Origin: Candidatus Beckwithbacteria bacterium GW2011_GWC1_49_16
GTDB taxonomy: Bacteria > Patescibacteriota > Microgenomatia > UBA1400 > CG1-02-47-37
Length of the DNA: 64,000 bases
Direction: 5' to 3'
Assembly: GCA_001029675.1 (NCBI GenBank)
Contig: CP011210.1
Location: 256,193-320,192 of the forward strand
Of this stretch, positions 2,247 to 58,222 are shown in pieces (position 1 is the first letter of the stretch; each line of letters starts with the position of its first letter). The notes under the pieces were generated by a model. That model had not been told where the DNA came from and did no database searches. It saw only the letters and a list, made by a program, of their open reading frames with translations. The translations under genes and the position numbers were made by a program.

Positions 2247-3842
2247 ATGATGGCGGAGATGGAAAACAAACCGGTGAGTCAGGAGTTAGGCGCTGAAGGC
2301 GGTGCCAACTTGACGCCGCTTGAGAGCCTGATCGAGATTGGCAGAGAAGGCGGTCTGGTGACTTTTAATGATGTTTTAAGTTTTTTCCCCGACGTCGACG
2401 AACCCGGGGATTTTGATCGAGTATTGGATTCTCTACAGACAGCAGGGATATTGGTGGTTGAGGAAGAAGTTGAGTCGGAGCCAACGGATGAGGATTTGGC
2501 CGATAACGAACTGACCCGTCTAAGTAGCGGGACAGATTTAAAGCATCTTAATTCAGATGATATCGTGGGAACGTATCTTAGAGAAGTGAGCCGAGTGCCT
2601 TTGTTGACCGGCAAAGAGGAGGTTAATTTAGCCAAAAGGATTGAAAAAGGCAGGCAGGCGAGAGAAGAAGTGGCAGAGGGAGATTATGAGGCGGAAGAGT
2701 TGGGGAGGTTTCGGGAAATCATAGACAGTGGTGATGAGGCCTTTAAGCATTTAGTGGCTGCCAATGGGCGTTTGGTAGTCAGCGTGGCTAAAAAATACAT
2801 GGGGCGCGGCGTGCCTATTGAGGATTTAATCCAAGAAGGCAACATTGGCCTAATCAGGGCGGCTAAAAAGTTCGACTATCGTCGGGGTCATAAGTTTAGC
2901 ACTTACGCCACTTGGTGGATTCGGCAGGCTATCACTCGGGGGATTGCTGATCAGGGCAGGACGATCAGAGTTCCGGTTCATATGGGAGATAGTATTAACA
3001 AGATGCTTAAAGTGCAGCATCAGTTAGTCCAGAAACTTGGTCGAGAACCAACTAATGAAGAGGTGGCGGCGGAGCTTGATAAGACTAAGACGAGTAAAGC
3101 ACCGATTACGGCTAGTAAGGTAAAAATGATGAAGCAAGTTGCCAGAAGGCCGTTGTCTTTGGAGCAGCCGACCGGAGATGTTGAGGATGATTCGGTGTTG
3201 GGAGACTTTGTTGAGGATAAGACTGAACTACCGCCAGATGAAACTGCGGCAAACAACTTACTCAATGAACATTTGGCGGAGGTGATGGCAGATTTGCCGC
3301 CAAGAGAACAGCGGGTGTTGGAGTTAAGGTACGGCTTGGCGGACGGAATGGCTTACACTTTGGAAGAGGTCGGCAGAAAAATGGGTGTAACTAGAGAGAG
3401 GGTGAGGCAAATCGAGGCTCAGGCGTTATCGAGAATGAGACACCCGATGGTGAGAAAGAGGTTAAGAGAGTATTTGTCTGAAGATACATTTGAATATTTT
3501 AAGAAACCAAGTCTTGAGCGAGCGAGAGCGTCAAGAGAAAACATATTTAAGACTGGCAGTTTTGATAGCTACTATCTTAGTCTTTCCGGGAGAAAAAACC
3601 CGATGGTGGTAAGCAGCTTAGATCGATTGGGGGGCATAAGTTTGAGCGAAATTAATAAAACTCTTCTGGGATTTTTAAATTTTGAAAGAAGGGTGCTGAA
3701 AAAAGCTTTGGGAATAGAATTGGAAAGGGGTTTTGTTTATTCGGTGCCAGGGATTATGAAAGAGACCGGGTTATCGCGGTACGCGATTGAAGGAATTATT
3801 TCCAGGGGTTTGGCTGAAATAATGGCGAGATATAAAGGGTAG
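2247..3842 (+). CDS. rpoD: RNA polymerase sigma-70 factor RpoD carrying an extra C-terminal extension of about 120 aa
   Basis: Regions 1.2, 2 (YATWWIRQAITR), 3 and 4 (LEEVGRKMGVTRERVRQIEAQAL) are present. The ORF continues about 120 aa past the normal end and includes an HTH-like stretch (GIMKETGLSRYAIEGII). Confidence 0.85.
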   Translation: MMAEMENKPVSQELGAEGGANLTPLESLIEIGREGGLVTFNDVLSFFPDVDEPGDFDRVLDSLQTAGILVVEEEVESEPTDEDLADNELTRLSSGTDLKHLNSDDIVGTYLREVSRVPLLTGKEEVNLAKRIEKGRQAREEVAEGDYEAEELGRFREIIDSGDEAFKHLVAANGRLVVSVAKKYMGRGVPIEDLIQEGNIGLIRAAKKFDYRRGHKFSTYATWWIRQAITRGIADQGRTIRVPVHMGDSINKMLKVQHQLVQKLGREPTNEEVAAELDKTKTSKAPITASKVKMMKQVARRPLSLEQPTGDVEDDSVLGDFVEDKTELPPDETAANNLLNEHLAEVMADLPPREQRVLELRYGLADGMAYTLEEVGRKMGVTRERVRQIEAQALSRMRHPMVRKRLREYLSEDTFEYFKKPSLERARASRENIFKTGSFDSYYLSLSGRKNPMVVSSLDRLGGISLSEINKTLLGFLNFERRVLKKALGIELERGFVYSVPGIMKETGLSRYAIEGIISRGLAEIMARYKG

Positions 3843-7831: not shown

Positions 7832-8395
7832 ATGTTAAAGATTAAGTTATATAAAGATTTACCTGAGGAGTTGAGATCAAAATATTCTAAACTGAAGAGG
7901 GGTGTTTTTGTTGGTGAAGCTCAGGAAGAAGAAGATGAGGGAATTGAACACGAAGAGGAATATTGTAGTGAAGCAGATCTTATCTGTTATTTAATTGCTT
8001 ATGAGGATGAGGAGATAATTGGGGGCTTAGAATTATTTAAAAGGAGGATTAAGCATCTTAATCAATTGATAATTTTAGGTGGGATTGGTAGTCTTTGGGT
8101 GAGAAAAGACAAAAGAAGGAGGGGTTTAGCTACAAAACTACTAAAGAAAGTAATGGAGGAATTAAAGATAAAAGGCTGTGAGGTGGTTTATTTATGTACT
8201 GATATAGGGAAATTAAAAAGTCTATATGCCCAAGTTGGCTTTGTGCCTTTAAAAAAGAATTATACTTTTGTAGGTAGGTCTGGGAAAAGATATTTTAAAG
8301 ATGACGGTATGATTGCTTTCATAAAACCTAAGGAAACTTTAAGGAAGATAGTTAAGAGTAAAGAACCATTCGATATTGGAGTAGGTAATTGGTGA
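7832..8395 (+). CDS. GNAT family N-acetyltransferase (AT-rich, probably horizontally acquired)
   Basis: RRRGLATKLLKKVMEEL acetyl-CoA-binding motif; codon usage visibly more AT-rich than the flanks. Confidence 0.7.
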   Translation: MLKIKLYKDLPEELRSKYSKLKRGVFVGEAQEEEDEGIEHEEEYCSEADLICYLIAYEDEEIIGGLELFKRRIKHLNQLIILGGIGSLWVRKDKRRRGLATKLLKKVMEELKIKGCEVVYLCTDIGKLKSLYAQVGFVPLKKNYTFVGRSGKRYFKDDGMIAFIKPKETLRKIVKSKEPFDIGVGNW

Positions 8396-13861: not shown

Positions 13862-15985
13862 TTAGAGTTCTTCCAGCTTGTCTTTGACGGTTTGGTTGGC
13901 GGGATTTAAGTAATCAAGGATGTATTGGTATTGAACGCGGGCCAGATCGAGTTGGCCGGCGTCTTGATAAAGGGAACCTAGGGCAAAACGGGCGGCTTCG
14001 TAGTTTGGTTTTAAGTCGATGGTTTTTTCCAGAATTTGTTGGGCCAGGCCGTTTTGACCCATTTGCACGTACAAAAGCCCTAGGTTGTAGTAGAGTTTGG
14101 CGTCGGTGGGCGAAAGCCTTAGGGTAGTTTCAAAGGCAGACAGAGCCTGCCCCCGGTAGTTTTCGTCGATGGTGGATAAAAGCAGGAAAATCTGGATGCG
14201 GGACTTCCAGTAGTTGAGGTGAACTTGGTTTTGTTGGTTGACAACATCGATTTGGGAGACGGCCTCTTTGACCATCTGGTCGCGGACGGTAGCGGCTTGG
14301 GTGGCCAAGACAGGGTCGGAATCGGTAAGTGTCTGTTGGTGGTAAAGAACGGCCAGTTTGGCGGCGGCCTCGGCGTACTCGGAGCGGAACAACGGCTCGT
14401 CAGGTTGGCTGTCGACGGACTGCTTGAGGGTGAGAAAGCCGTTTAAGATTTGGTCGGCGGCAACAAGGTTTTTACCGGTGTTGAAAGCGACGTCGGCGCG
14501 CCACATGGTAACCAGACCGAAAGCAAAGTAGGCGGCGGTTAGCCAGGCGGCGGTAAGGAAAAGGGATTGTTGGTTGTTGAGGGCTGATGGTTGAGTCGCT
14601 TGGTCGGTTTGAGGGGAAGTGAGGGAAAAAGCCAGTGCCGGCCACAAAAAGAAAAACAAAGACACGGGGACGACGGCAAAGCCGAAGAAGTTGGAGACGG
14701 ATAAGCCGATAAAGCCTGCCAGCAGGGCAATTTTCAATTCCCAATTTTCAATTTTCAAACTTTTTAGACACCAAATTGTAAACCAAATTTGCAGCAGCAA
14801 ATAGCTGCCTAAGCCAAAAATGCCCGTGGTAGCTAAAAAATTAAGGTATTCGTTGTGGGCTTTGTTGTAAAGAAAGTCCCATTCGGAAAGAAGGTTGTGG
14901 GCTTGGGGTTTGAAGTTGTAGTAGGAGTAGGCAAAAGTTTCTACGCCCGAACCAAACCAGGGGTAGGCGCGCCAGACATCAAGCGCCCCCTGCCAAACCA
15001 CGTTTCTTATTTCCTGGGAACTGGAGCCGCCCAAGGTAATGGCCGGAGGGGCAATCTCGTTTCCACCGTCCGAGGAGTCACTTCGTGCCACCTCGGAGGA
15101 GGAAACTTCAACACCACTCCGGGAGCGGAGAAACTCTTTGAAAGTGGGGGTCAAGTCGGTGCCGACGAGGCCGGCGATTAGGGCTAAAGCGGCGCTGGTG
15201 AGTAAAAACTTTTTCCAGGGAAAAGATTTAATTTTTTGCTTAAATAAAATTAAGATCCAGAAGACGGAGTAGGCGACGGCCAGCCCGGCCAGGCCGGAGC
15301 GGGATTTGGTGTAGAGCAAAGTGAGGTAGAAAGCCGTAATCAGTAAACCGTAAACGGTAATTTGTAATTTTGTTCTGGCTTTTAAGAAAAAGGCCAGGGC
15401 GACGGGGATGAGGGTTAAAAGATAGGCGGCCAGCCAGTTGGGTTGGCCCAGGGTGGAAAAAACCCGGTTTTTGACGTCCTGGATCCAGACGTGTTCGTCG
15501 ATGCCGAAGTGCTCTAAGATGCCATAGAGGGAAACTATCAGGGCGGTGGTCAGGGTGACTTTTAAAAATTTTTTGGTAAAGCGGGGCGAGGCAAGGTTTG
15601 AGATATAGGCATAGTAGAGGGTGAGGTAGCTCGCGGTGGACACAAGGCCGCCGTTGAAGCGGGAGTAATAGCCCCAAAGCGAAGTGTGGCGGTCGATGGA
15701 AAATACGGTTGAAACAAGTTGGGAGAGGAAAAATAGAAGTATTGGAATATCAAACGGGGTGCGCCTGAAAATCAAGCGCCGGGCGAGGATCATTTTGCTC
15801 ACCCAGGCGGCGGCGATAACCAGGGTGAAAAAATAAACTGCCAGAATCTTGTTAAACTCAAAGAGTTCGTAGTTAACCGGCGTTAAAATCAGGGGAACGA
15901 TGATGGTCAGAGCGTAAAAGGAGGCGCGGATGATTTGGTCGAGACGATGATTCAAGCTCATTGCTGCCAGTATAACATGATACAA
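13862..15985 (-). CDS. O-antigen ligase (Wzy_C) family membrane protein with C-terminal TPR repeats
   Basis: Many TM helices; C-terminal TPR-like repeats (AKLYYNLGLLYVQMGQ...). Confidence 0.6.
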   Translation of the reverse strand: MYHVILAAMSLNHRLDQIIRASFYALTIIVPLILTPVNYELFEFNKILAVYFFTLVIAAAWVSKMILARRLIFRRTPFDIPILLFFLSQLVSTVFSIDRHTSLWGYYSRFNGGLVSTASYLTLYYAYISNLASPRFTKKFLKVTLTTALIVSLYGILEHFGIDEHVWIQDVKNRVFSTLGQPNWLAAYLLTLIPVALAFFLKARTKLQITVYGLLITAFYLTLLYTKSRSGLAGLAVAYSVFWILILFKQKIKSFPWKKFLLTSAALALIAGLVGTDLTPTFKEFLRSRSGVEVSSSEVARSDSSDGGNEIAPPAITLGGSSSQEIRNVVWQGALDVWRAYPWFGSGVETFAYSYYNFKPQAHNLLSEWDFLYNKAHNEYLNFLATTGIFGLGSYLLLQIWFTIWCLKSLKIENWELKIALLAGFIGLSVSNFFGFAVVPVSLFFFLWPALAFSLTSPQTDQATQPSALNNQQSLFLTAAWLTAAYFAFGLVTMWRADVAFNTGKNLVAADQILNGFLTLKQSVDSQPDEPLFRSEYAEAAAKLAVLYHQQTLTDSDPVLATQAATVRDQMVKEAVSQIDVVNQQNQVHLNYWKSRIQIFLLLSTIDENYRGQALSAFETTLRLSPTDAKLYYNLGLLYVQMGQNGLAQQILEKTIDLKPNYEAARFALGSLYQDAGQLDLARVQYQYILDYLNPANQTVKDKLEEL

Positions 15986-16018
15986 TTTCTAATTGACCTA
16001 ATTTTTAATTAACCTAAG

Positions 16019-17068
16019 ATGAAATTTATCAATCTTTTTCGGCTGGTGGGGAGTGAGTTGGCGGTGGATTTGGGAACGGCCAACACGGTGATCTTTGTCA
16101 CCGGTAAAGGGGTGGTGGTGCGCGAACCGACGGTGGTGGCCAGGAGAAAGAAATCCAAAGAACTTTTGGCGGTAGGGGGCGAGGCTAAAAAAATGCTGGG
16201 GAAAAACCCGGAAGAGATCGAGGTGGTCAAGCCTTTGGTCGATGGCGTGATTGCCGATTTTGACGCGGCCACCGACATGCTCAAATATTACTTTAGACAG
16301 CTTAGCCAGCACGGAGGGATCATTCCCCGGTTGTCGGGGCCAAAAGTCTTGGTGGGGATTCCCTCGGGGGTGACCGAGGTAGAAAAGCGGGCGGTGCAGG
16401 AAGCCGCGCTTAGCGCCGGCGCCCGCCAAGCCTTACTGGTGGAGGAGCCGATGGCGGCGGCGATCGGTTCGGGGCTGTCGGTAGAAAAGGCCGACGGCCA
16501 GCTGGTGGTGGACGTGGGCGGCGGTACCACCGAGATCGCAGTGGTGAGTTTGGCCGGGATAGTCATCAACAAATCGTTAAGGGTGGCAGGATCGGAAATG
16601 GACGAGGCGATCGTCAAGTCGACGAGGTTAAAGCACGGGCTACTCCTGGGGGAGGCGACGGCCGAGGAAGTGAAGATGGCCATCGGCAGCGCGGTACCGT
16701 TTCCCAGCGAAAAAAGCTATGTGGTGCGGGGAAGAAATTTGGAGAAGGGTTTACCCAAGTCGTTGAAGCTGGTAAGCGGCGAGGTAAGAGAGGCATTGGC
16801 GGGGGTGGTGCGCGAGATCGTGGCGGCGGTGGCGGGGACGATCGAGGAGACGCCGCCGGAGTTGGTGGCGGACATTTTAAAACACGGTATCGTTTTGTCG
16901 GGAGGCGGAGCCCAGCTTTATGGCATCGACAAGGTGATTGCTGAGGAAACTAGGATGCCGGTGTGGATGGTCGACGACCCCCAAGATGCGGTGGTCAGGG
17001 GCCTGGCGAAATTACTCCGAAACGGCAAACTTTTGGAGCAGGTTAAGGTGACAAGAGGCTTACGCTAA
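16019..17068 (+). CDS. mreB: rod shape-determining protein MreB
   Basis: DLGTANTVI actin-fold phosphate-1 motif; 349 aa. Confidence 0.9.
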   Translation: MKFINLFRLVGSELAVDLGTANTVIFVTGKGVVVREPTVVARRKKSKELLAVGGEAKKMLGKNPEEIEVVKPLVDGVIADFDAATDMLKYYFRQLSQHGGIIPRLSGPKVLVGIPSGVTEVEKRAVQEAALSAGARQALLVEEPMAAAIGSGLSVEKADGQLVVDVGGGTTEIAVVSLAGIVINKSLRVAGSEMDEAIVKSTRLKHGLLLGEATAEEVKMAIGSAVPFPSEKSYVVRGRNLEKGLPKSLKLVSGEVREALAGVVREIVAAVAGTIEETPPELVADILKHGIVLSGGGAQLYGIDKVIAEETRMPVWMVDDPQDAVVRGLAKLLRNGKLLEQVKVTRGLR

Positions 17069-17362
17069 ATTATTCTAATTACTAATTCCTAATTACTAAC
17101 TAAACACCAAAAAACCAATTACCAATGAACAAAGGGTTTGATTTGGAAGAAAGAACGGCTAAGTTTGGCGAAAAAGTGATACTGGTTAAATGCGCTACCA
17201 GCATTGGAGCCAATTACTGTGAAGCAGATGATGCGGAAAGCAGGAAAGACTTCAAACACAAAATTAAATCTTATTTTCAACTCAATTTATAAAAAGTTGT
17301 GAATTAGTTATTGGGTAATTTTGAATTTGTTAGAAATTAGATCAATTAGAAATTAGATATTG
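17068..17362. mobile_element. MITE-like element: remnant four-helix-bundle ORF flanked by imperfect inverted repeats of about 32 bp
   Basis: The left end (17068-17100, aattattctaattactaattcctaattactaac) is close to the reverse complement of the right end (17329-17362, gttagaaattagatcaattagaaattagatatt). Confidence 0.45.
17125..17292 (+). pseudogene. truncated four-helix-bundle protein (23S rRNA intervening-sequence protein family) remnant, 55 aa
   Basis: MNKGFDLEERTAKFGEKVILVKCATSIGANYCEADDAESRKDFKHKIKSYF matches the conserved SIGANYxEA...SxKDFxHK core but is internally deleted and C-terminally truncated. Confidence 0.5.
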
Positions 17363-17370
17363 AGTTAAGT

Positions 17371-18099
17371 ATGAAGTTAAGTAAGACAAAGGTTTATATA
17401 GTGTTGCTGCTAATCAGCGGTTTATTGTGGTGGGGTGATGGACGAGAATATTTTGACTGGTTAAGGCGGCCGGCGGCAAGGATTTTTCAACCTTTACGGG
17501 CCAAGCTGTATCAAACCCAAATTAAGCCAGAGCCGGAAAGGGCGGAGAAGCTGCAACAGCAGTACGATTTGCTGACTGTCGAGGCAATGAAGTTAAGAGA
17601 AGAAAACGAAAGTTTAAGAAAGCTTTTGGGGGCAAATTTACCGGCGTCGATGGCTTTTATCCCGGCTAAAATTTTAAAGCTTGATGAAGACGAAATCCGG
17701 CTTGATGTCGGCAGTGACCAGGGGGTCAAGACAGGCCAGACGGTGATCGGCGACGGGGCGCTTGTCGGTCAAGTGGTGGAGGTGACGGCGACCGAGGCGG
17801 TGGTGAGATTGCTTTTGAGCCAAGACAGCCGGGTCTTGGCGGTGACGGCCGGCGGGGCAGAGGGAGTGGTAGCGGGGTATTTGGCAGAGGCGGGGTTGAG
17901 ATTGACAGAGGTTTTAAACAAACATGAATTAAATCAGGGAGAGCTGGTGGTGAGTAAAGGAGGAGACGGGGTTAGGCCCGATTTGGGCATCGGCAGGGTG
18001 GCCGAGGTGTTCAAAGAGGACAGGCAAGTGTATCAGGAAGCCAAATTGGCCCCGATAGTTGATGTTTTAAGCTTAAATCAGGTGTTTGTGATCCGGTAA
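17371..18099 (+). CDS. mreC: rod shape-determining protein MreC
   Basis: N-terminal TM, coiled coil, then beta-rich domain (GDGALVGQVVEVTATEAVVRLL). Confidence 0.8.
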   Translation: MKLSKTKVYIVLLLISGLLWWGDGREYFDWLRRPAARIFQPLRAKLYQTQIKPEPERAEKLQQQYDLLTVEAMKLREENESLRKLLGANLPASMAFIPAKILKLDEDEIRLDVGSDQGVKTGQTVIGDGALVGQVVEVTATEAVVRLLLSQDSRVLAVTAGGAEGVVAGYLAEAGLRLTEVLNKHELNQGELVVSKGGDGVRPDLGIGRVAEVFKEDRQVYQEAKLAPIVDVLSLNQVFVIR

Positions 18100-18101
18100 G
18101 C

Positions 18102-18407
18102 CTACTGACCTAAAATCATCTCCATGCCCTGGCGGTGAAGGTCGAGGATGGCGTCGACTTTTTGGGTAAAACTCAATGGTTCGGCGCCGATTTGCTTGAT
18201 GGTAAGTTGGTTGAGGCCGGAGTTTGCCGGTTGGTCGGCGGGATAATCAAGCTCGTCGGCTAAAGGGTCGGGAGGGATAGCTTCTTCGATTAAAATGGCG
18301 TTTATGGCCGGCAAAGACGAGGGGACGATGAGGATGGGGTAAGCCAAATAAATGAACATGAGAGTCAAGATGAAGACCAACGAACGCCAGAGGATCCTTA
18401 AAGACAT
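18102..18407 (-). CDS. hypothetical small membrane protein (uncertain ORF lying in the mreC-mreD gap)
   Basis: ORF with an N-terminal TM helix and an acidic tail; it fills an otherwise unusual 330-nt gap. Confidence 0.2.
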   Translation of the reverse strand: MSLRILWRSLVFILTLMFIYLAYPILIVPSSLPAINAILIEEAIPPDPLADELDYPADQPANSGLNQLTIKQIGAEPLSFTQKVDAILDLHRQGMEMILGQ

Positions 18408-43700: not shown

Positions 43701-44438
43701 ATGACCAAAAAAACGACCAAAAAAACAGACTACAAAATCGACCTGAAGGAGTTACTCGATGCCGGGTGCCATTTTGGCCACCAGGCCAGGCGGTGGAACC
43801 CGAAGATGAAGCAGTACATTTATGTCAAGCGCGACGGGGTGCACATTTTTGATCTTGAAAAAACGGCTGCCCACCTCTCGGCGGCGATGGAAAAGGTGCG
43901 GGATTTGGTAGCCGAGGGCAAAGAGGTGGTGTTTGTCGGCACCAAAAGACAAGCCTCTTCGATCGTGGAAGAGGAAGCCAAAAAAGTGGGGGCGCCTTAT
44001 GTGGCCATCCGCTGGCTGGGAGGAACGGTGACTAATTGGGAGCAGATTAAAAAGGGAATCGACAAGTTGAATGAGTATGAAGAAAAAAAAGCCAAAGGCG
44101 AGTTTAAAAAATATACCAAAAAAGAAAATTTATTGATCGCCAGGGAGATGGAAAAGCTAGACCGGTTTTTAGGGGGGTTGAAGACTTTAACCCAGATTCC
44201 GGAGGCGATTTTTGTGGTGGATATCAAAAAAGAGGTGGCAGCGGTAAAGGAAGCCAAGATCCGCGGCCTGGAGTTGATCGCCATGGTCGACTCAAACGCT
44301 GACCCCGACGTGGTGACCGATGTGATTCCGGCCAACGACGACGCGGTCCGGTCGATCAAATTAGTGGTAGCCAAAATGGCCCAAGCTTACAGTGACGGCA
44401 AGGGCTTAAAAGGCAAAAAGCCCAAGGCAAAATCATGA
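43701..44438 (+). CDS. rpsB: 30S ribosomal protein S2
   Basis: LLDAGCHFGHQARRWNPKM. Confidence 0.9.
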   Translation: MTKKTTKKTDYKIDLKELLDAGCHFGHQARRWNPKMKQYIYVKRDGVHIFDLEKTAAHLSAAMEKVRDLVAEGKEVVFVGTKRQASSIVEEEAKKVGAPYVAIRWLGGTVTNWEQIKKGIDKLNEYEEKKAKGEFKKYTKKENLLIAREMEKLDRFLGGLKTLTQIPEAIFVVDIKKEVAAVKEAKIRGLELIAMVDSNADPDVVTDVIPANDDAVRSIKLVVAKMAQAYSDGKGLKGKKPKAKS

Positions 44439-44890
44439 GTAAAATTTCTTTAAAAGACATCAAAAAACTAAGAGACGAGACCGGGGCGGGGTTGATGGAG
44501 GTGAGAGTAGCCCTTGAGGAGGCGGGAGGCAAGGCTAAAAAGGCTAAAGAGATTTTGAAAAAGCTGGGGGTCAAAAAAGCAGCCAAACGCGGCGACAAAG
44601 CCACCGATGAGGGTTTTATTTTCACCTACGTCCACCAGGGCAGGATCGGAGCCATGGTCAAGCTGCTTTGTGAGACTGACTTTGTGGCCAGATCGAGTCA
44701 GTTTCAAAAATTGGGAGCTGAACTGGCGCTGCAAATTGCCAGCATGGAGCCAAAAAACGTTGAGGCGCTTTTAAAGCAGGAGTATATCAGGGACAACAAA
44801 ACCAAGATTGCCGATTTAGTGGCCGCGGCCGCGGCCAAACTCAAAGAGAACATTAAGGTGGACGATATCGCGAGATTAGCTTTAAAGTAA
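44435..44890 (+). CDS. tsf: elongation factor Ts (short, 151 aa)
   Basis: KKLRDETGAGLMEVRVAL UBA-like N-terminus. Confidence 0.8.
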   Translation: MSKISLKDIKKLRDETGAGLMEVRVALEEAGGKAKKAKEILKKLGVKKAAKRGDKATDEGFIFTYVHQGRIGAMVKLLCETDFVARSSQFQKLGAELALQIASMEPKNVEALLKQEYIRDNKTKIADLVAAAAAKLKENIKVDDIARLALK

Positions 44891-44931: not shown

Positions 44932-45174
44932 ATGACGATTCTTTCTACCGTAACCACCAAGGGCCAGGTGACTATTCCCCAAGAGTTTAGACAAATGCTG
45001 AACATTAAACCAGGCCAAAAAGTACAATTTTCCAAAGGCGGGTCAGGAGCAATTAAGCTTAAACCTGTACCTGATTTTGCGGATATGATGGGTTACTTTA
45101 AAACTAAAATTAAATACAATAAAAAGGCTGCTAGAGCAGCTTACGTTAAGGATTTAATTGCTGGTAAAATCTAA
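44932..45174 (+). CDS. AbrB/MazE/SpoVT-family antitoxin
   Basis: TTKGQVTIPQEFRQMLNIKPGQKV swapped-hairpin motif. Confidence 0.6.
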   Translation: MTILSTVTTKGQVTIPQEFRQMLNIKPGQKVQFSKGGSGAIKLKPVPDFADMMGYFKTKIKYNKKAARAAYVKDLIAGKI

Positions 45175-45557
45175 TGGTTATTGATACGGATATTATTATT
45201 CGATTTATAACCCAAGACGATAACCAAAAGGCGAAAAAATTTCAAGTTTGGCTGAAAAAAAACAAAAAAATTCTCCTGTCTGATGTTACGGTTGCCGAAA
45301 CCTATTGGGTGCTTAAGTCTTTTTACGGTTTTTCTCAAAAAAGAATAATTATCAGTCTTGAATCACTGGTGAGCTATAACAATATCGTATGTAATAAAGT
45401 TTTGCTGTTATCAACGATGGCGCAATTAAAAAGATATAAGATTAGTTTTGTTGATGCTTACGCGTCAGCATATAGTTTGCTGGAAAATGATGGGAAAATA
45501 CTTTCTTTTGACAAGGATTTTGACAAAATTAAAGGCATTAAAAGAATTGAACCTTAG
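45174..45557 (+). CDS. PIN-domain toxin (VapC-like)
   Basis: MVIDTDIIIRF...SFDKDFDKI acidic residues; ATG overlaps the upstream stop. Confidence 0.7.
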   Translation: MVIDTDIIIRFITQDDNQKAKKFQVWLKKNKKILLSDVTVAETYWVLKSFYGFSQKRIIISLESLVSYNNIVCNKVLLLSTMAQLKRYKISFVDAYASAYSLLENDGKILSFDKDFDKIKGIKRIEP

Positions 45558-45580: not shown

Positions 45581-46141
45581 ATGGACGAGTCGATATTTGC
45601 CTCGGGTAAAGCCAAGATGGACCAGGTAGTCGAGCTGGTGAGTCAAGAATTGGATCAAGTCAGAACCGGCAGAGCCAAGCCGGCCTTGGTGGAACGGGTT
45701 AAAGTCGAAGCCTATGAGGGGACGACGATGGAGGTACGGGAAGTGGCGGCGATTGCCGCCCCCGACCCGCATTCGTTGATTATCAAGCCGTGGGATACCA
45801 ACGTTTTAAAGTCTTTGGAAAAAGCGCTTCTGAAAGCTGATTTAGGGGCAAGTCCGGTAGTCGAAGGAGAGCAGGTGAGGTTGACGATTCAGCCCTTAAG
45901 CCAGGAGCGCCGGGAAGAGTTGGTCAAACAGGTTGGTCAAAGAGTCGAGAGTGGTAAGGCGATGTTGAGACAGATAAGAAACGAGGTAAAGCATGAAATC
46001 GACGAACACGAAGACGACCCAGGGGTGTCGGAGGACGACGTTCACGCCATGTATGACCGGCTGCAAAGTTTAATTGACGATTACAACGGCAAGCTTGATT
46101 CTCTCGAGGAAGCCAAGGCCAAAGAATTGATGGAGCTGTAA
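45581..46141 (+). CDS. frr: ribosome recycling factor
   Basis: Typical RRF length and sequence (EAYEGTTMEVREVAAIAAPDPHSLIIKPWD). Confidence 0.9.
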   Translation: MDESIFASGKAKMDQVVELVSQELDQVRTGRAKPALVERVKVEAYEGTTMEVREVAAIAAPDPHSLIIKPWDTNVLKSLEKALLKADLGASPVVEGEQVRLTIQPLSQERREELVKQVGQRVESGKAMLRQIRNEVKHEIDEHEDDPGVSEDDVHAMYDRLQSLIDDYNGKLDSLEEAKAKELMEL

Positions 46142-55925: not shown

Positions 55926-56350
55926 TTTCAGTTGATAAGATCCGAACTGATCTAAACCAGGCAGTTAAAGCCAAGGACGCCGACAAGGTGTCGACCTTGA
56001 GAATGTTGTTGGCGGCGCTTCATAACGCCGAGATTGAAAAAAAGGGCGGACTTGAAAGTCAAGATGTGTTGAGGGTGTTAAAACAAGAGGCCAAAAAAAG
56101 GCAGGAATCGATCGAAGCCTACAGGAAAGGTGGGAGGCCGGAATTGGCGGACAAGGAAACAAGCGAGCTTAAAATAATTAAAGCGTATTTACCCCAAGAA
56201 ATGGGCGAGGAGGAAATAAGGCAGGCGGTGAAGGCAGTTCTCGCCGAGGCTAAAGGAGATTTTGGCCAGGCGATGAAGCTAGCGATGGTTAGGCTTGCCG
56301 GTAAGGCAGACGGGGCGGTGGTAGCCAGAATTGTAAAGCAAGAGTTATGA
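55922..56350 (+). CDS. GatB/YqeY domain protein
   Basis: Typical YqeY length and helical pattern (LRMLLAALHNAEIEKK). Confidence 0.75.
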   Translation: MISVDKIRTDLNQAVKAKDADKVSTLRMLLAALHNAEIEKKGGLESQDVLRVLKQEAKKRQESIEAYRKGGRPELADKETSELKIIKAYLPQEMGEEEIRQAVKAVLAEAKGDFGQAMKLAMVRLAGKADGAVVARIVKQEL

Positions 56351-56715
56351 GGTTGTCGGTGAGGCTGGCCTCACGCTACCGGGTCAAAAAAGAACTGCTG
56401 GAGCAAGCGGTCGCCAGGGTGATCAAAGGCCACGGTTTGACCGGTAATGTCGAGGTTTCGGTGAGCTTGGTTGACGACAAAAAGATGACTCAGCTCAACC
56501 GAAAATACATGGGAAAGCTTGGGACGACGGATGTTTTGAGTTTCCCTCTCGATAAAGAGCCAGGGCCGGATGGGGTGGTGAGATTGGGAGACGTGGTGGT
56601 AAGTTTTCCCGAGGCCACCAGGCAGGCAAACGAACGTGGGGTGGGGGTTGACGAAAGTTTGCGGTTTTTGACCGAGCACGGGGTGCTCCATCTTCTCGGA
56701 GTACATCATGACTAA
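56347..56715 (+). CDS. ybeY: rRNA maturation endoribonuclease YbeY
   Basis: HGVLHLLGVHHD zinc-binding motif. Confidence 0.85.
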   Translation: MRLSVRLASRYRVKKELLEQAVARVIKGHGLTGNVEVSVSLVDDKKMTQLNRKYMGKLGTTDVLSFPLDKEPGPDGVVRLGDVVVSFPEATRQANERGVGVDESLRFLTEHGVLHLLGVHHD

Positions 56716-56770
56716 ATTGACCTAATTTCTAATTGACCTAATCAATGACCAATGACACAATGACTAATAA
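56716..56770 (+). repeat. intergenic array of degenerate TTGACCTAAT units (ttgacctaat, ttgacctaat, tgaccaat, tgactaat) upstream of dnaX
   Basis: Direct reading. The same unit pair ttgacctaat / ttaacctaag occurs upstream of mreB at 15991-16016. Confidence 0.5.
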
Positions 56771-56779
56771 ATAAAAAGT

Positions 56780-58222
56780 ATGGCGTACTATTTAAAATAC
56801 CGGCCGCAAAAAATTTCTGATTTGGATATTAAGGAGGTTAGCTCTGCTTTGGGCGAGATTTTGGCAGCCAAAGACGTGCCCCACGCCTTTTTGTTTGTGG
56901 GGCCTAAAGGTACGGGTAAGACGTCGGCGGCCAGGATCGTAGCCAAGGCGGTAAACTGCACGGCTAAAAGGGGTAATCCGCCAGCCGGCGGAGAGCCGTG
57001 TAACAAGTGTGAGGCGTGTTTGAGTTTGAGCCGAGGGAACGCTTTAGATTTGATCGAGATCGACGCGGCCTCAAATCGGGGAATTGACGATATCCGGGAT
57101 TTACGGGAAAAGATCAGGCTGGCGCCGGCAAATTTAAGCAAAAAAGTCTACATCATTGACGAAGCCCACATGCTGACCAAGGAGGCCTTTAACGCGTTAC
57201 TGAAAACCCTGGAAGAGCCTCCAGAGCACGCTGTGTTTGTGCTTTGCACCACTCAAGCCGAGAAGATACCGGGGACGATTGCCTCGCGCTGTTGGCAGGT
57301 TAATTTTAGAAAGGCTAACTTAGAAGAAATTATCAGGGCGTTGACCCGGGTGGTCAAGGGAGAGAAGCTTAAAATTAGCCTCAATGATTTAAGGCTTATT
57401 GCCAAACAGGCCGGAGGAAGCTTCAGGGACGCGGTCAAAATTTTGGAGCAGTTGGCGGCGGCGGGGAAAAAGATCAGTTCGGCCAAAGTTGGTGAGGTGT
57501 TAAAGACAAAGTTGATGGGTGAGGAGCTTGATGACTGGTTGGTACTGGTTTACCAAAAAGAGGTTAATAAAGCTTTGGAGTGGTTAAGAAAAGCGGGCGA
57601 ACAAGGCATCGACGTGAAGCAGTTGGCGATTAACCTGGTGGAGCGGTTGAGGCAAGTGTTGTTTTTGCGCTTGGGCGTTGAGGAGGAGGCAAGCGACATC
57701 GACGAGCTAAAAGACAAAGATGAAGTTAAAAAATTGCTGGCGCTTTTGGCGGCGGCGGCCGAAAAAATTAAAGGAGCGGTAATAGAAAGTTTGCCTTTGG
57801 AGTTGGCGGTGGTGGAGTGGTCCGCCTCTGCTAAAGCTTCGGAGGATAAAGGGGGTAACCCCAGCCCACCCAGCCCAGAGCCTGATTTAAAAACCAAGTC
57901 GGGAAAGCTTAGCTTGAAGGCGGTGGAGGATAGGTGGGACGAGGTGCTAAAAGCCTTGCGGCCCCACAACCATAGTTTAGAGGCACTGCTGCGGGCGACC
58001 AAACCGACCGGTTTTGACGGTAAGAACCTGGTTTTAGAAGTGTTTTATCGGTTTCACAAAGAGCGTTTGGAGATAGCCCGCTACCGCGAGTTGGTAGAGA
58101 CGGTGGCTTCAAAAGTGCTTAAAAGCCCGGTGGGGGTGAGGTATTATTTAAGCGAGAAGGGGAAGAAAAGCAACGACGATGATATTATTAAAACTGCTCA
58201 GGAAGTTTTTGGGGGGAGGTGA
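56780..58222 (+). CDS. dnaX: DNA polymerase III subunit gamma/tau
   Basis: FVGPKGTGKTSAARI Walker A; CNKCEAC zinc module; sensor motifs. Confidence 0.85.
   Translation: MAYYLKYRPQKISDLDIKEVSSALGEILAAKDVPHAFLFVGPKGTGKTSAARIVAKAVNCTAKRGNPPAGGEPCNKCEACLSLSRGNALDLIEIDAASNRGIDDIRDLREKIRLAPANLSKKVYIIDEAHMLTKEAFNALLKTLEEPPEHAVFVLCTTQAEKIPGTIASRCWQVNFRKANLEEIIRALTRVVKGEKLKISLNDLRLIAKQAGGSFRDAVKILEQLAAAGKKISSAKVGEVLKTKLMGEELDDWLVLVYQKEVNKALEWLRKAGEQGIDVKQLAINLVERLRQVLFLRLGVEEEASDIDELKDKDEVKKLLALLAAAAEKIKGAVIESLPLELAVVEWSASAKASEDKGGNPSPPSPEPDLKTKSGKLSLKAVEDRWDEVLKALRPHNHSLEALLRATKPTGFDGKNLVLEVFYRFHKERLEIARYRELVETVASKVLKSPVGVRYYLSEKGKKSNDDDIIKTAQEVFGGR

Follow-up and report, generated by a model that had tools for sequence, protein, structure and literature searches.

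A probable cassette relic between mreB and mreC

The AT-rich spacer of 302 nt (positions 17069–17370) that separates mreB from mreC in the genome of Candidatus Beckwithbacteria bacterium GW2011_GWC1_49_16 is very probably an inert relic of an element that we call an IVS-type cassette, after the intervening sequences (IVSs) of 23S rRNA. Such a cassette consists of one gene for a TIGR02436/PF05635 (S23p/Avd-like) four-helix-bundle (4HB) protein of about 120 aa, placed between inverted arms. The DNA analyzed, called the window below, is the whole stretch of 64,000 nt of contig CP011210.1. From arm to arm, the spacer is colinear with intact cassettes of about 460 nt found in three unrelated Patescibacteria (L005, L017, and L006; L numbers denote the fetched loci). 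The level of nucleotide identity is 72–83%, and the alignment contains exactly two gaps, of 54 nt and 113 nt.

The spacer also differs from its surroundings in composition, the GC content by position being 0.21–0.41 (about 0.3) in the spacer and 0.55–0.69 within mreB (about 0.6 for the flanking genes). The locus has the following layout:

16019–17068, + strand: mreB, the upstream host gene (PF06723, E = 5e-121)
17068–17100, + strand: left arm, tandem array AATTATTC-TAATTAC-TAATTCC-TAATTAC-TAAC with units of 9, 7, 7, and 7 nt
17101–17124, + strand: leader, 5' half of the predicted inner stem (..ccaattaccaATG), pairing with 17304–17320
17125–17292, + strand: 4HB pseudogene remnant of 55 codons (profile matches, protein and nucleotide alignments)
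17262–17302, + strand: ancestral 3' terminus of the 4HB gene, no longer in frame (frame-1 translation, open reading frame 17204–17302, alignment columns 389–430)
17303–17328, + strand: trailer, 3' half of the predicted inner stem (ttagttattgggtaatttt...) (inverted repeat, fold, alignment)
17329–17362, + strand: right arm, inverted array GTTAGAAATTAGATCAATTAGAAATTAGATATT with TAG in several frames; 8 nt follow, and then the mreC ATG
17371–18099, + strand: mreC, the downstream host gene (PF04085, E = 3e-26)

The final A of the mreB TAA stop codon (17066–17068) is at the same time the first base of the left arm. This arm can be summarized as (CTAATTN)x3-4; it has TAA in all three reading frames and is homologous to the left arms of intact cassettes in the nucleotide alignment. 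The leader is also colinear with the cassettes of L005, L017, and L006. The right arm contains TTAGAAATTAGAT twice. Only weak consensus matches were obtained in a promoter and terminator scan of the spacer, and no terminator-like site is present within it.

The ends of the spacer are inverted with respect to each other. An inverted-repeat search revealed 18-nt arm pairs with 83% complementarity and one 14-nt pair with 93%. In a local alignment of the upstream flank with the reverse complement of the downstream flank, 40 of 47 positions match (17074–17122 with 17307–17357); the score is 35, and the maximum among composition-shuffled controls is 27. The predicted RNA fold pairs both spacer ends, with a minimum free energy of −64.1 kcal/mol and z = −2.67, a value equalled by none of 100 shuffles. 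Since both the arm alignment and the fold exceed the shuffled controls, the inverted ends are real and beyond chance. An earlier reading made from the sequence alone had described imperfect inverted repeats at the bounds of the spacer, and this description is confirmed, each end being in fact a tandem array. As for RNAduplex energies, they averaged −49 kcal/mol for cognate arms and −38 kcal/mol for non-cognate ones, but long windows produce spurious pairing, and these values were not used as evidence.

The same sequence-only reading had placed an insertion in the middle of the operon. Relatives found via MreB homologues bear this out: all four that keep mreC (MreB 67–76% identical) have no spacer at the junction. 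The two genes share an ATGA overlap in L085 and L087, abut as TAAATG in L089, and in L090 mreC follows directly after the stop codon. Because mreB and mreC overlap or abut in these four relatives, the spacer is an insertion. In two other relatives (L086 and L088), mreC is absent, and a small minus-strand open reading frame (ORF) lies directly after mreB; it corresponds to the ORF at 18102–18407 of the window, which follows mreC and has no Pfam match. The PBP2 gene is next to it in L088.

Twenty-three contigs, which come from several samples, have a record of the 55-aa ORF, and the order mreB–ORF–mreC is present in all four places shown (L001–L004). L001 and L002 are identical to the window base for base, and the first differences in L003 and L004 are well outside the spacer. 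The insertion thus looks fixed in this population. That the samples agree is due to clonality and is not a measure of constraint.

The ORF at 17125–17292 matches proteins of the rRNA IVS family, as had been proposed from the sequence. A phmmer search with the 55-aa product matched 306 annotated four-helix-bundle proteins with E ≤ 0.001; the matches reach 4e-16, at 55–65% identity. There is also a match to PDB 2rld at 6e-12. The profile scores are low. NCBIfam TIGR02436 gives 25.1 bits, marginally over the cut-off of 24, compared with 72–74 bits for intact relatives; the PF05635 alignment is weak (E = 7e-4, 20.2 bits), under the gathering score of 33.8.

The alignments indicate how the gene was damaged. 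In the protein alignment with relatives, an 18-residue gap follows FGEKVI. In the nucleotide alignment, the 54-nt deletion is in frame and falls at about 17180|17181, and the 113-nt deletion, at about 17261|17262, shifts the frame; both points lie within short AAT/AATT microhomologies. After the second deletion, the ancestral frame reads ...KLNLIFNSIYKKL*, with the ancestral TGA stop codon at 17300–17302, so that the ancestral C-terminus ...LNLIFNSIYKKL* can be read up to this stop in another frame. As this C-terminus has been kept, though not in frame, the gene is not truncated at the 3' end. The sequence-only reading had called the ORF internally deleted and truncated; the first part holds, given the two gaps, and the second does not, given the retained 3' end. 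The complete four-helix fold takes about 110–130 aa, the remnant has 55 aa, and the deletions remove about half of the protein. Judging by these alignments, the ORF is a pseudogene derived from a TIGR02436/PF05635 member and not itself a member.

The cassette family

Relatives of the 4HB gene were sought by a scan of one genome per species; it gave at least 560, of which the best 80 loci were kept. These 80 loci belong to Patescibacteria, Planctomycetota, Verrucomicrobiota, Ignavibacteria, and bins labelled Gammaproteobacteria, and their intact 4HB genes mostly encode 113–131 aa. The length of intact cassettes ranges from 409 to 631 nt with a median of 460 nt.

In 73 of 79 homologous genes, the inverted flanks score above every shuffled control. 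The median inverted-repeat score of the flanks is 39 for 4HB genes and 19 for other genes of the same loci. The arms consist of three to five units of 7 or 9 nt, namely TAATT plus TC, AACC, GACC, ATTC, or GATC. A typical upstream array is AATTGACC-TAATTTC-TAATTAACC-TAA, and a mirror array TTAGGTTAATTAGAAATTAG...AATT is located downstream. In GC-rich hosts (L021, L049, L056, and L073), the units are AATGACG, AATGACT, and AAATCCG, and the 7-nt period and the inverted symmetry are kept. Among the 98 CTAATT/AATTAG arrays in 443 kb of fetched DNA, 87 adjoin a 4HB gene, and the remaining 11 are solo arms or gene-less arm pairs. Because 87 of the 98 arrays adjoin such a gene, the arms are part of the cassette and not a general feature of intergenic DNA.

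The ratio of nonsynonymous to synonymous substitution rates (dN/dS) between intact cassette pairs is 0.03–0.13, a range that, as far as sequence comparison goes, places intact 4HB genes under strong purifying selection. A single, strongly conserved gene of this kind in intact copies does not agree with the earlier description of the 4HB gene as a passenger.

In five loci (L035 at about 3340–3470, L044, L054, L059, and L041), an intact cassette is flanked by a second, gene-less arm set. These paired sets look as if they were tandem or nested cassettes, one inserting beside or into another.

Further relics in the window and the decay series

Searches for an exact second copy of the arms (25-mer) or of the ORF (tblastn) in the window found none. 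Looser arm patterns revealed two further relic sites, so that the 64-kb window has three arm-bearing sites, the chance expectation for these patterns being 0.01–0.03 matches. The arm sequence is thus not unique, a point that the sequence-only reading had left to a search for other copies: two further arrays are present in the window, and arms flank 73 of 79 homologous genes. The two sites are as follows:

15984–16016, + strand: solo left-arm relic (AATTTCTAATTGACCTAATTTTTAATTAACCTAA) between the -10-like box of mreB (gtataacatgaTACAAT) and the mreB ATG
56715–56779, + strand: solo left arm (56715–56750) plus the first 4HB codons (AATTGACCTAATTTCTAATTGACCTAATCAATGAC...; ATGACCAATGACACAATGACTAATAAATAA), the rest of the cassette being deleted

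The relic upstream of mreB shares 97% identity with the left arm of L029 over 31 nt. It is complementary to the right arm of the spacer (17334–17354) at 20 of 21 positions, which is better than the local left arm. To judge from this complementarity, long-range pairing of 15984–16016 with 17334–17354, located 1.3 kb downstream, would be possible and would enclose the whole mreB cistron. In the closest relative, L085 (MreB 76%), a gene-less arm pair (2421–2495) lies directly after the -10-like box of mreB, i.e., at the position of the solo arm of the window, an arrangement that points to one old insertion, common to both lineages, whose decay took a different course in each.

The relic at 56715–56779 is located between ybeY (56347–56715, PF02130) and a gene at 56780–58222, which was identified as dnaX by translation alone. 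It is identical at 35 of 35 positions to the left arm and start codon of the cassette of L040, an unrelated bin.

Other stages of decay were found in the fetched loci. The 4HB ORF is truncated in L023, L026, and L077, and gene-less arm pairs are present in L017 (3467–3593), L069 (2100–2237), and, as noted, L085. Read from sequence, these forms make up a decay series from the intact cassette through the internally deleted one (the mreB–mreC spacer) and the gene-less arm pair to the solo arm.

As regards the mreB promoter region, a box gtataacatgNTAGAAT (...TAGAAT) is conserved 7–10 nt before the mreB ATG in L086–L090, at about 2470–2500. A box so close to the ATG suggests that mreB mRNA is leaderless, or nearly so, in this group. 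An arm relic separates the -10-like box from the mreB ATG in the window (15970–16018) and in L085, and the relic 15984–16016 would form the 5' leader of mreB.

Placement, orientation, and proposed mobility

The cassettes occupy their junctions in a regular manner. In 75 of 79 loci, the gene upstream of the cassette runs in the same direction as the cassette (binomial p of about 3e-18 under a 50% null, by our own arithmetic); the downstream gene does so in 62 of 74, and both genes in 59 of 74. The left arm typically begins at the host stop codon or a few nt from it. A left flank that ends in TA, so that the first A of the cassette completes the TAA stop codon, is present in 21 of 54 loci and also in the window. 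The right arm ends 0–20 nt before the next ATG.

Some cassettes have been retained at their sites. Three orthologous pairs share the same host context (L016/L018, L019/L053, and L035/L054), and long vertical persistence therefore follows. Other cassette pairs, about 80% identical, are found in unrelated contexts. That the cassette is mobile is inferred from its distribution, and several results limit this reading. Among 54 cassettes, the longest string shared by the two flanks averages 3.54 nt for cognate and 3.48 nt for non-cognate flanks, so there is no excess that would indicate a target-site duplication. Near-identical cassettes were not seen between genomes, the nucleotide identity being at most 83%, and IMG/VR viral contigs yielded no relatives. 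In the protein collection, even the closest MreB relatives share only 76% identity, too little to date the insertion, and the spacer does not vary among contigs L001–L004.

No target-site duplication is evident at the window site either. A duplication of the mreB 3' end was considered as a candidate, comparing TTGAGTTAA before the mreC ATG with TTGAGATAA, the end of mreB in L089; it was rejected as unprovable at this divergence.

Origin of the spacer and a possible role of its RNA

According to the favoured reading of the spacer as a cassette relic, one cassette entered the mreB–mreC junction in the same orientation as the operon. Its 4HB gene was then destroyed by the two microhomology-flanked deletions of 54 and 113 nt, both arms surviving, and two other cassettes within the same 64 kb decayed further, to solo arms. 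The spacer is probably transcribed with mreB and mreC, because there is no terminator-like site within it and cassettes are co-oriented with the upstream gene. In such a transcript, the arms could form a stem of about 45 bp, not continuous, whose loop would be the remnant ORF. On balance, we lean towards the view that the present copy is functionally neutral, apart from replacing mreB/mreC translational coupling by a 302-nt gap. The consequence for the operon itself is probably small.

The likeliest alternative, although a doubtful one, is a role at the RNA level like that of rRNA IVSs. RNase III would excise the cassette RNA and part the mreB and mreC messages for differential stability or expression, and the spacer would be kept for that purpose. 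The predicted fold pairs the spacer ends, RNase III cleaves an IVS of this anatomy in Coxiella (PMC4990558), 75 of 79 cassettes are co-oriented with host transcription, and the arms outlast the decay of the gene. Two tests of the arm sequences, however, tell against an RNA stem under selection. On the sense strand, G.U is no more frequent than A.C among the mismatches between arms (77 vs. 99). In-register matches between the variable spacers of the two arms do not exceed chance in the AT-rich class (0.54 vs. 0.48 per element, p = 0.28). Since these spacers are unmatched, the stem consists of 6-bp blocks parted by mismatches and bulges, and such blocks with internal loops are a poor substrate for RNase III. 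In the GC-rich class (L049, L056, and L073), the arms are in register. Moreover, the relatives manage mreB and mreC without any spacer. Within the 64-kb window, no RNase III gene is present. Because the two sequence tests do not support a selected stem, cleavage of the mreB–mreC spacer by RNase III, suggested by analogy, is considered rather unlikely.

By their sequence, the arms look like oppositely oriented arrays drawn from one unit repertoire, a pattern that agrees better with recognition sites than with a strict helix. For the intact family, we give about even weight to a joint proposal with three parts: the 4HB protein would be expressed by upstream read-through, the arms would serve as oriented recognition arrays (for the 4HB protein or for a mover) and not as a strict stem, and the stop codons in all frames would insulate the reading frames of host and cassette.

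Comparison with transposable elements, host genes, and retroelements

An improbable explanation is that the spacer is a classical miniature inverted-repeat transposable element (MITE), i.e., a deletion derivative of an insertion sequence, with the arms as terminal inverted repeats for a transposase acting in trans and the 4HB gene as cargo. At about 295 nt, with inverted arms and a dead ORF, the element is short, non-autonomous, and bounded by terminal inverted repeats. The cassettes share with MITEs and REPIN-like elements (repetitive extragenic palindrome doublets) their small size, inverted ends, intergenic sites, several copies (as far as the three arm-bearing sites of the 64-kb window show), and gene-less derivatives, of which the relics in the window and the gene-less arm pairs are examples. 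They differ in lacking a transposase parent and a target-site duplication and in having arms made of tandem unit arrays instead of a single repeat, a gene under selection, and an orientation bias. In none of 79 intact copies is there a transposase, the 4HB gene being the only ORF between the arms. The shared flank strings (3.54 vs. 3.48 nt) indicate no duplication, strong purifying selection on the 4HB gene is unlike that on the cargo of a decaying MITE, and a bias of 75 of 79 is unexpected for symmetric terminal repeats. The term MITE-like, used in the sequence-only reading, is therefore not sustained in its strict sense, there being neither a transposase parent nor a target-site duplication. 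What is borne out of its small non-autonomous mobile element is that the spacer, with its inverted ends and remnant 4HB gene, is a decayed copy, not autonomous and colinear with intact copies, of an element that recurs.

It is very improbable that the host made the spacer itself, as a genuine 55-aa gene, an attenuator, or a small RNA evolved in place. The ORF is open over 55 codons, passes the TIGR02436 cut-off marginally, and occurs in the same context on contigs from several samples, the locus being identical in those compared. This identity, though, is that of a clonal population and not of constraint. None of the four relatives with mreC has the spacer. Its sequence is colinear with that of foreign cassettes, and through the two deletions about half of the fold is lost and the frame is shifted. 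The start codon is at most 2 nt from the inner stem, with no Shine-Dalgarno-like sequence seen before it, and an Rfam scan of the window found tRNAs only.

A remnant of a diversity-generating retroelement (DGR), in which the 4HB gene would encode the accessory protein Avd, is hardly conceivable: Avd belongs to the same four-helix-bundle superfamily, the structures of the BPP-1 Avd (bAvd) and of a representative PF05635 protein being reported as homologous (PMC10053308), but the cassette stands alone between host genes with no reverse transcriptase or template and variable repeats nearby. There is no reverse transcriptase among the called neighbours, none of the real ORFs within 10 kb on either side contains a YxDD motif, and for lack of a reverse transcriptase nearby the spacer is not part of a DGR. 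The 79 homologous cassettes, too, are flanked by host genes, for the most part co-directional ORFs that adjoin the arms, and a reverse transcriptase was seen at none of these loci.

Relation to rRNA intervening sequences and other known repeats

IVSs of 23S rRNA that contain an S23p ORF are known from Leptospira and as a Xanthomonas/Brucella type as well as from Coxiella, and they are located at helix 25 or 45. By analogy, the ORF-containing IVS of Coxiella appears to be the closest known kind of element to the cassette. It contains an S23p ORF, and the inverted repeats at its termini make up a 28-bp stem that is cut by RNase III; three to four tandem heptamers (GACAGAT), variable in copy number, precede the ORF, which is in reductive evolution (PMC4990558). 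Like this IVS, the cassette has one small PF05635/TIGR02436 ORF as the loop of a long hairpin, tandem heptamers as the 5' arm before the start codon, sense orientation, and a decay-prone ORF. In the spacer, terminal inverted repeats (40/47; z = −2.67) enclose the insert in a predicted stem, and the S23p-family ORF lies in sense behind the tandem heptamers, as described for Coxiella (PMC4990558).

The differences concern the location and the arms. The cassette is placed between two protein genes of a cell-shape operon and not in helix 25 or 45 of 23S rRNA. An rRNA context was found at none of 11 related loci checked, and there is no rRNA in the window, so the location is not that of an IVS. The units of the cassette measure 7 or 9 nt and occur three to five times on both sides, those of the AT-rich class are not strictly complementary in register, and any RNase III step is hypothetical here.

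Heptamer arms of the AATGACG/AATGACT/AATGACA type were observed in the GC-rich hosts of eight loci (L021, L030, L047, L055, L056, L060, L064, and L078). Compared by eye, AATGAC-type heptamers resemble the GACAGAT of Coxiella in another register, which may be a lead that junction cassettes and rRNA IVSs share their ends.

Insertions in rRNA genes have been described in the same host group, the candidate phyla radiation (CPR). A few insertions in 16S and 23S rRNA genes of CPR bacteria encode 23S_rRNA_IVP, and the known IVS sites hold many short insertions that are not introns (PMC11270868). These insertions differ from the cassette in that they are described only inside rRNA genes and most encode intron homing endonucleases, and repeat-armed cassettes at protein-gene junctions are not described in that paper (PMC11270868). 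Intergenic tandem units of 7 nt (e.g., TAACTGA) close to start codons are reported for cyanobacteria and Beggiatoaceae (PMC4679880). The cassette resembles these heptamers in its intergenic tandem 7-nt units near start codons. There, they are mostly direct repeats upstream of genes, and term searches of that source gave no link to a 4HB gene (PMC4679880), whereas the arrays of the cassette are inverted pairs around a 4HB gene. In the literature on IVSs, CPR rRNA insertions, and DGR/Avd, we found no repeat-armed 4HB cassettes between protein genes, which is not proof of novelty.

Tentatively, and with less assurance than for the proposal on the intact family, we suggest that the rRNA IVS with an ORF may be only a special case, resident in rRNA, of a much larger and as yet undescribed class of cassettes that ride on operons and are made of a 4HB gene and inverted 7/9-nt arms. 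Members of this class would insert in sense between a stop codon and the next start codon and leave no target duplication; they would occur in Patescibacteria, Planctomycetota, Verrucomicrobiota, Ignavibacteria, and others, and their only protein, the Avd-like 4HB protein, would recognize the arms and be needed for spread or retention. According to the literature, the origin of rRNA IVSs and the role of the S23p ORF are still unclear. Here, about 80 related loci in many phyla have the same gene-plus-arm unit at ordinary protein-gene junctions, almost always in sense. Together with the decay series, this family makes the question of what an IVS is tractable, both comparatively and experimentally, and the family-level pattern is more interesting than the single locus. 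For annotation, AT-rich spacers of CPR genomes with CTAATT or AATTAG arrays are to be read as cassette relics and not as promoters or orphan small genes.

Other AT-rich genes in the window

Two further AT-rich regions can be noted. A pair consisting of a MazE-like antitoxin (PF04014) and a PIN-domain toxin (PF01850) is located at 44932–45557, with a GC content of about 0.30. It lies between tsf (44435–44890) and frr (45581–46141), both named by translation alone, and looks like another small insertion between housekeeping genes. At 7832–8395, there is a GNAT acetyltransferase gene (PF00583) with a GC content of about 0.29 compared with the window average of 0.49; this gene may have been acquired.

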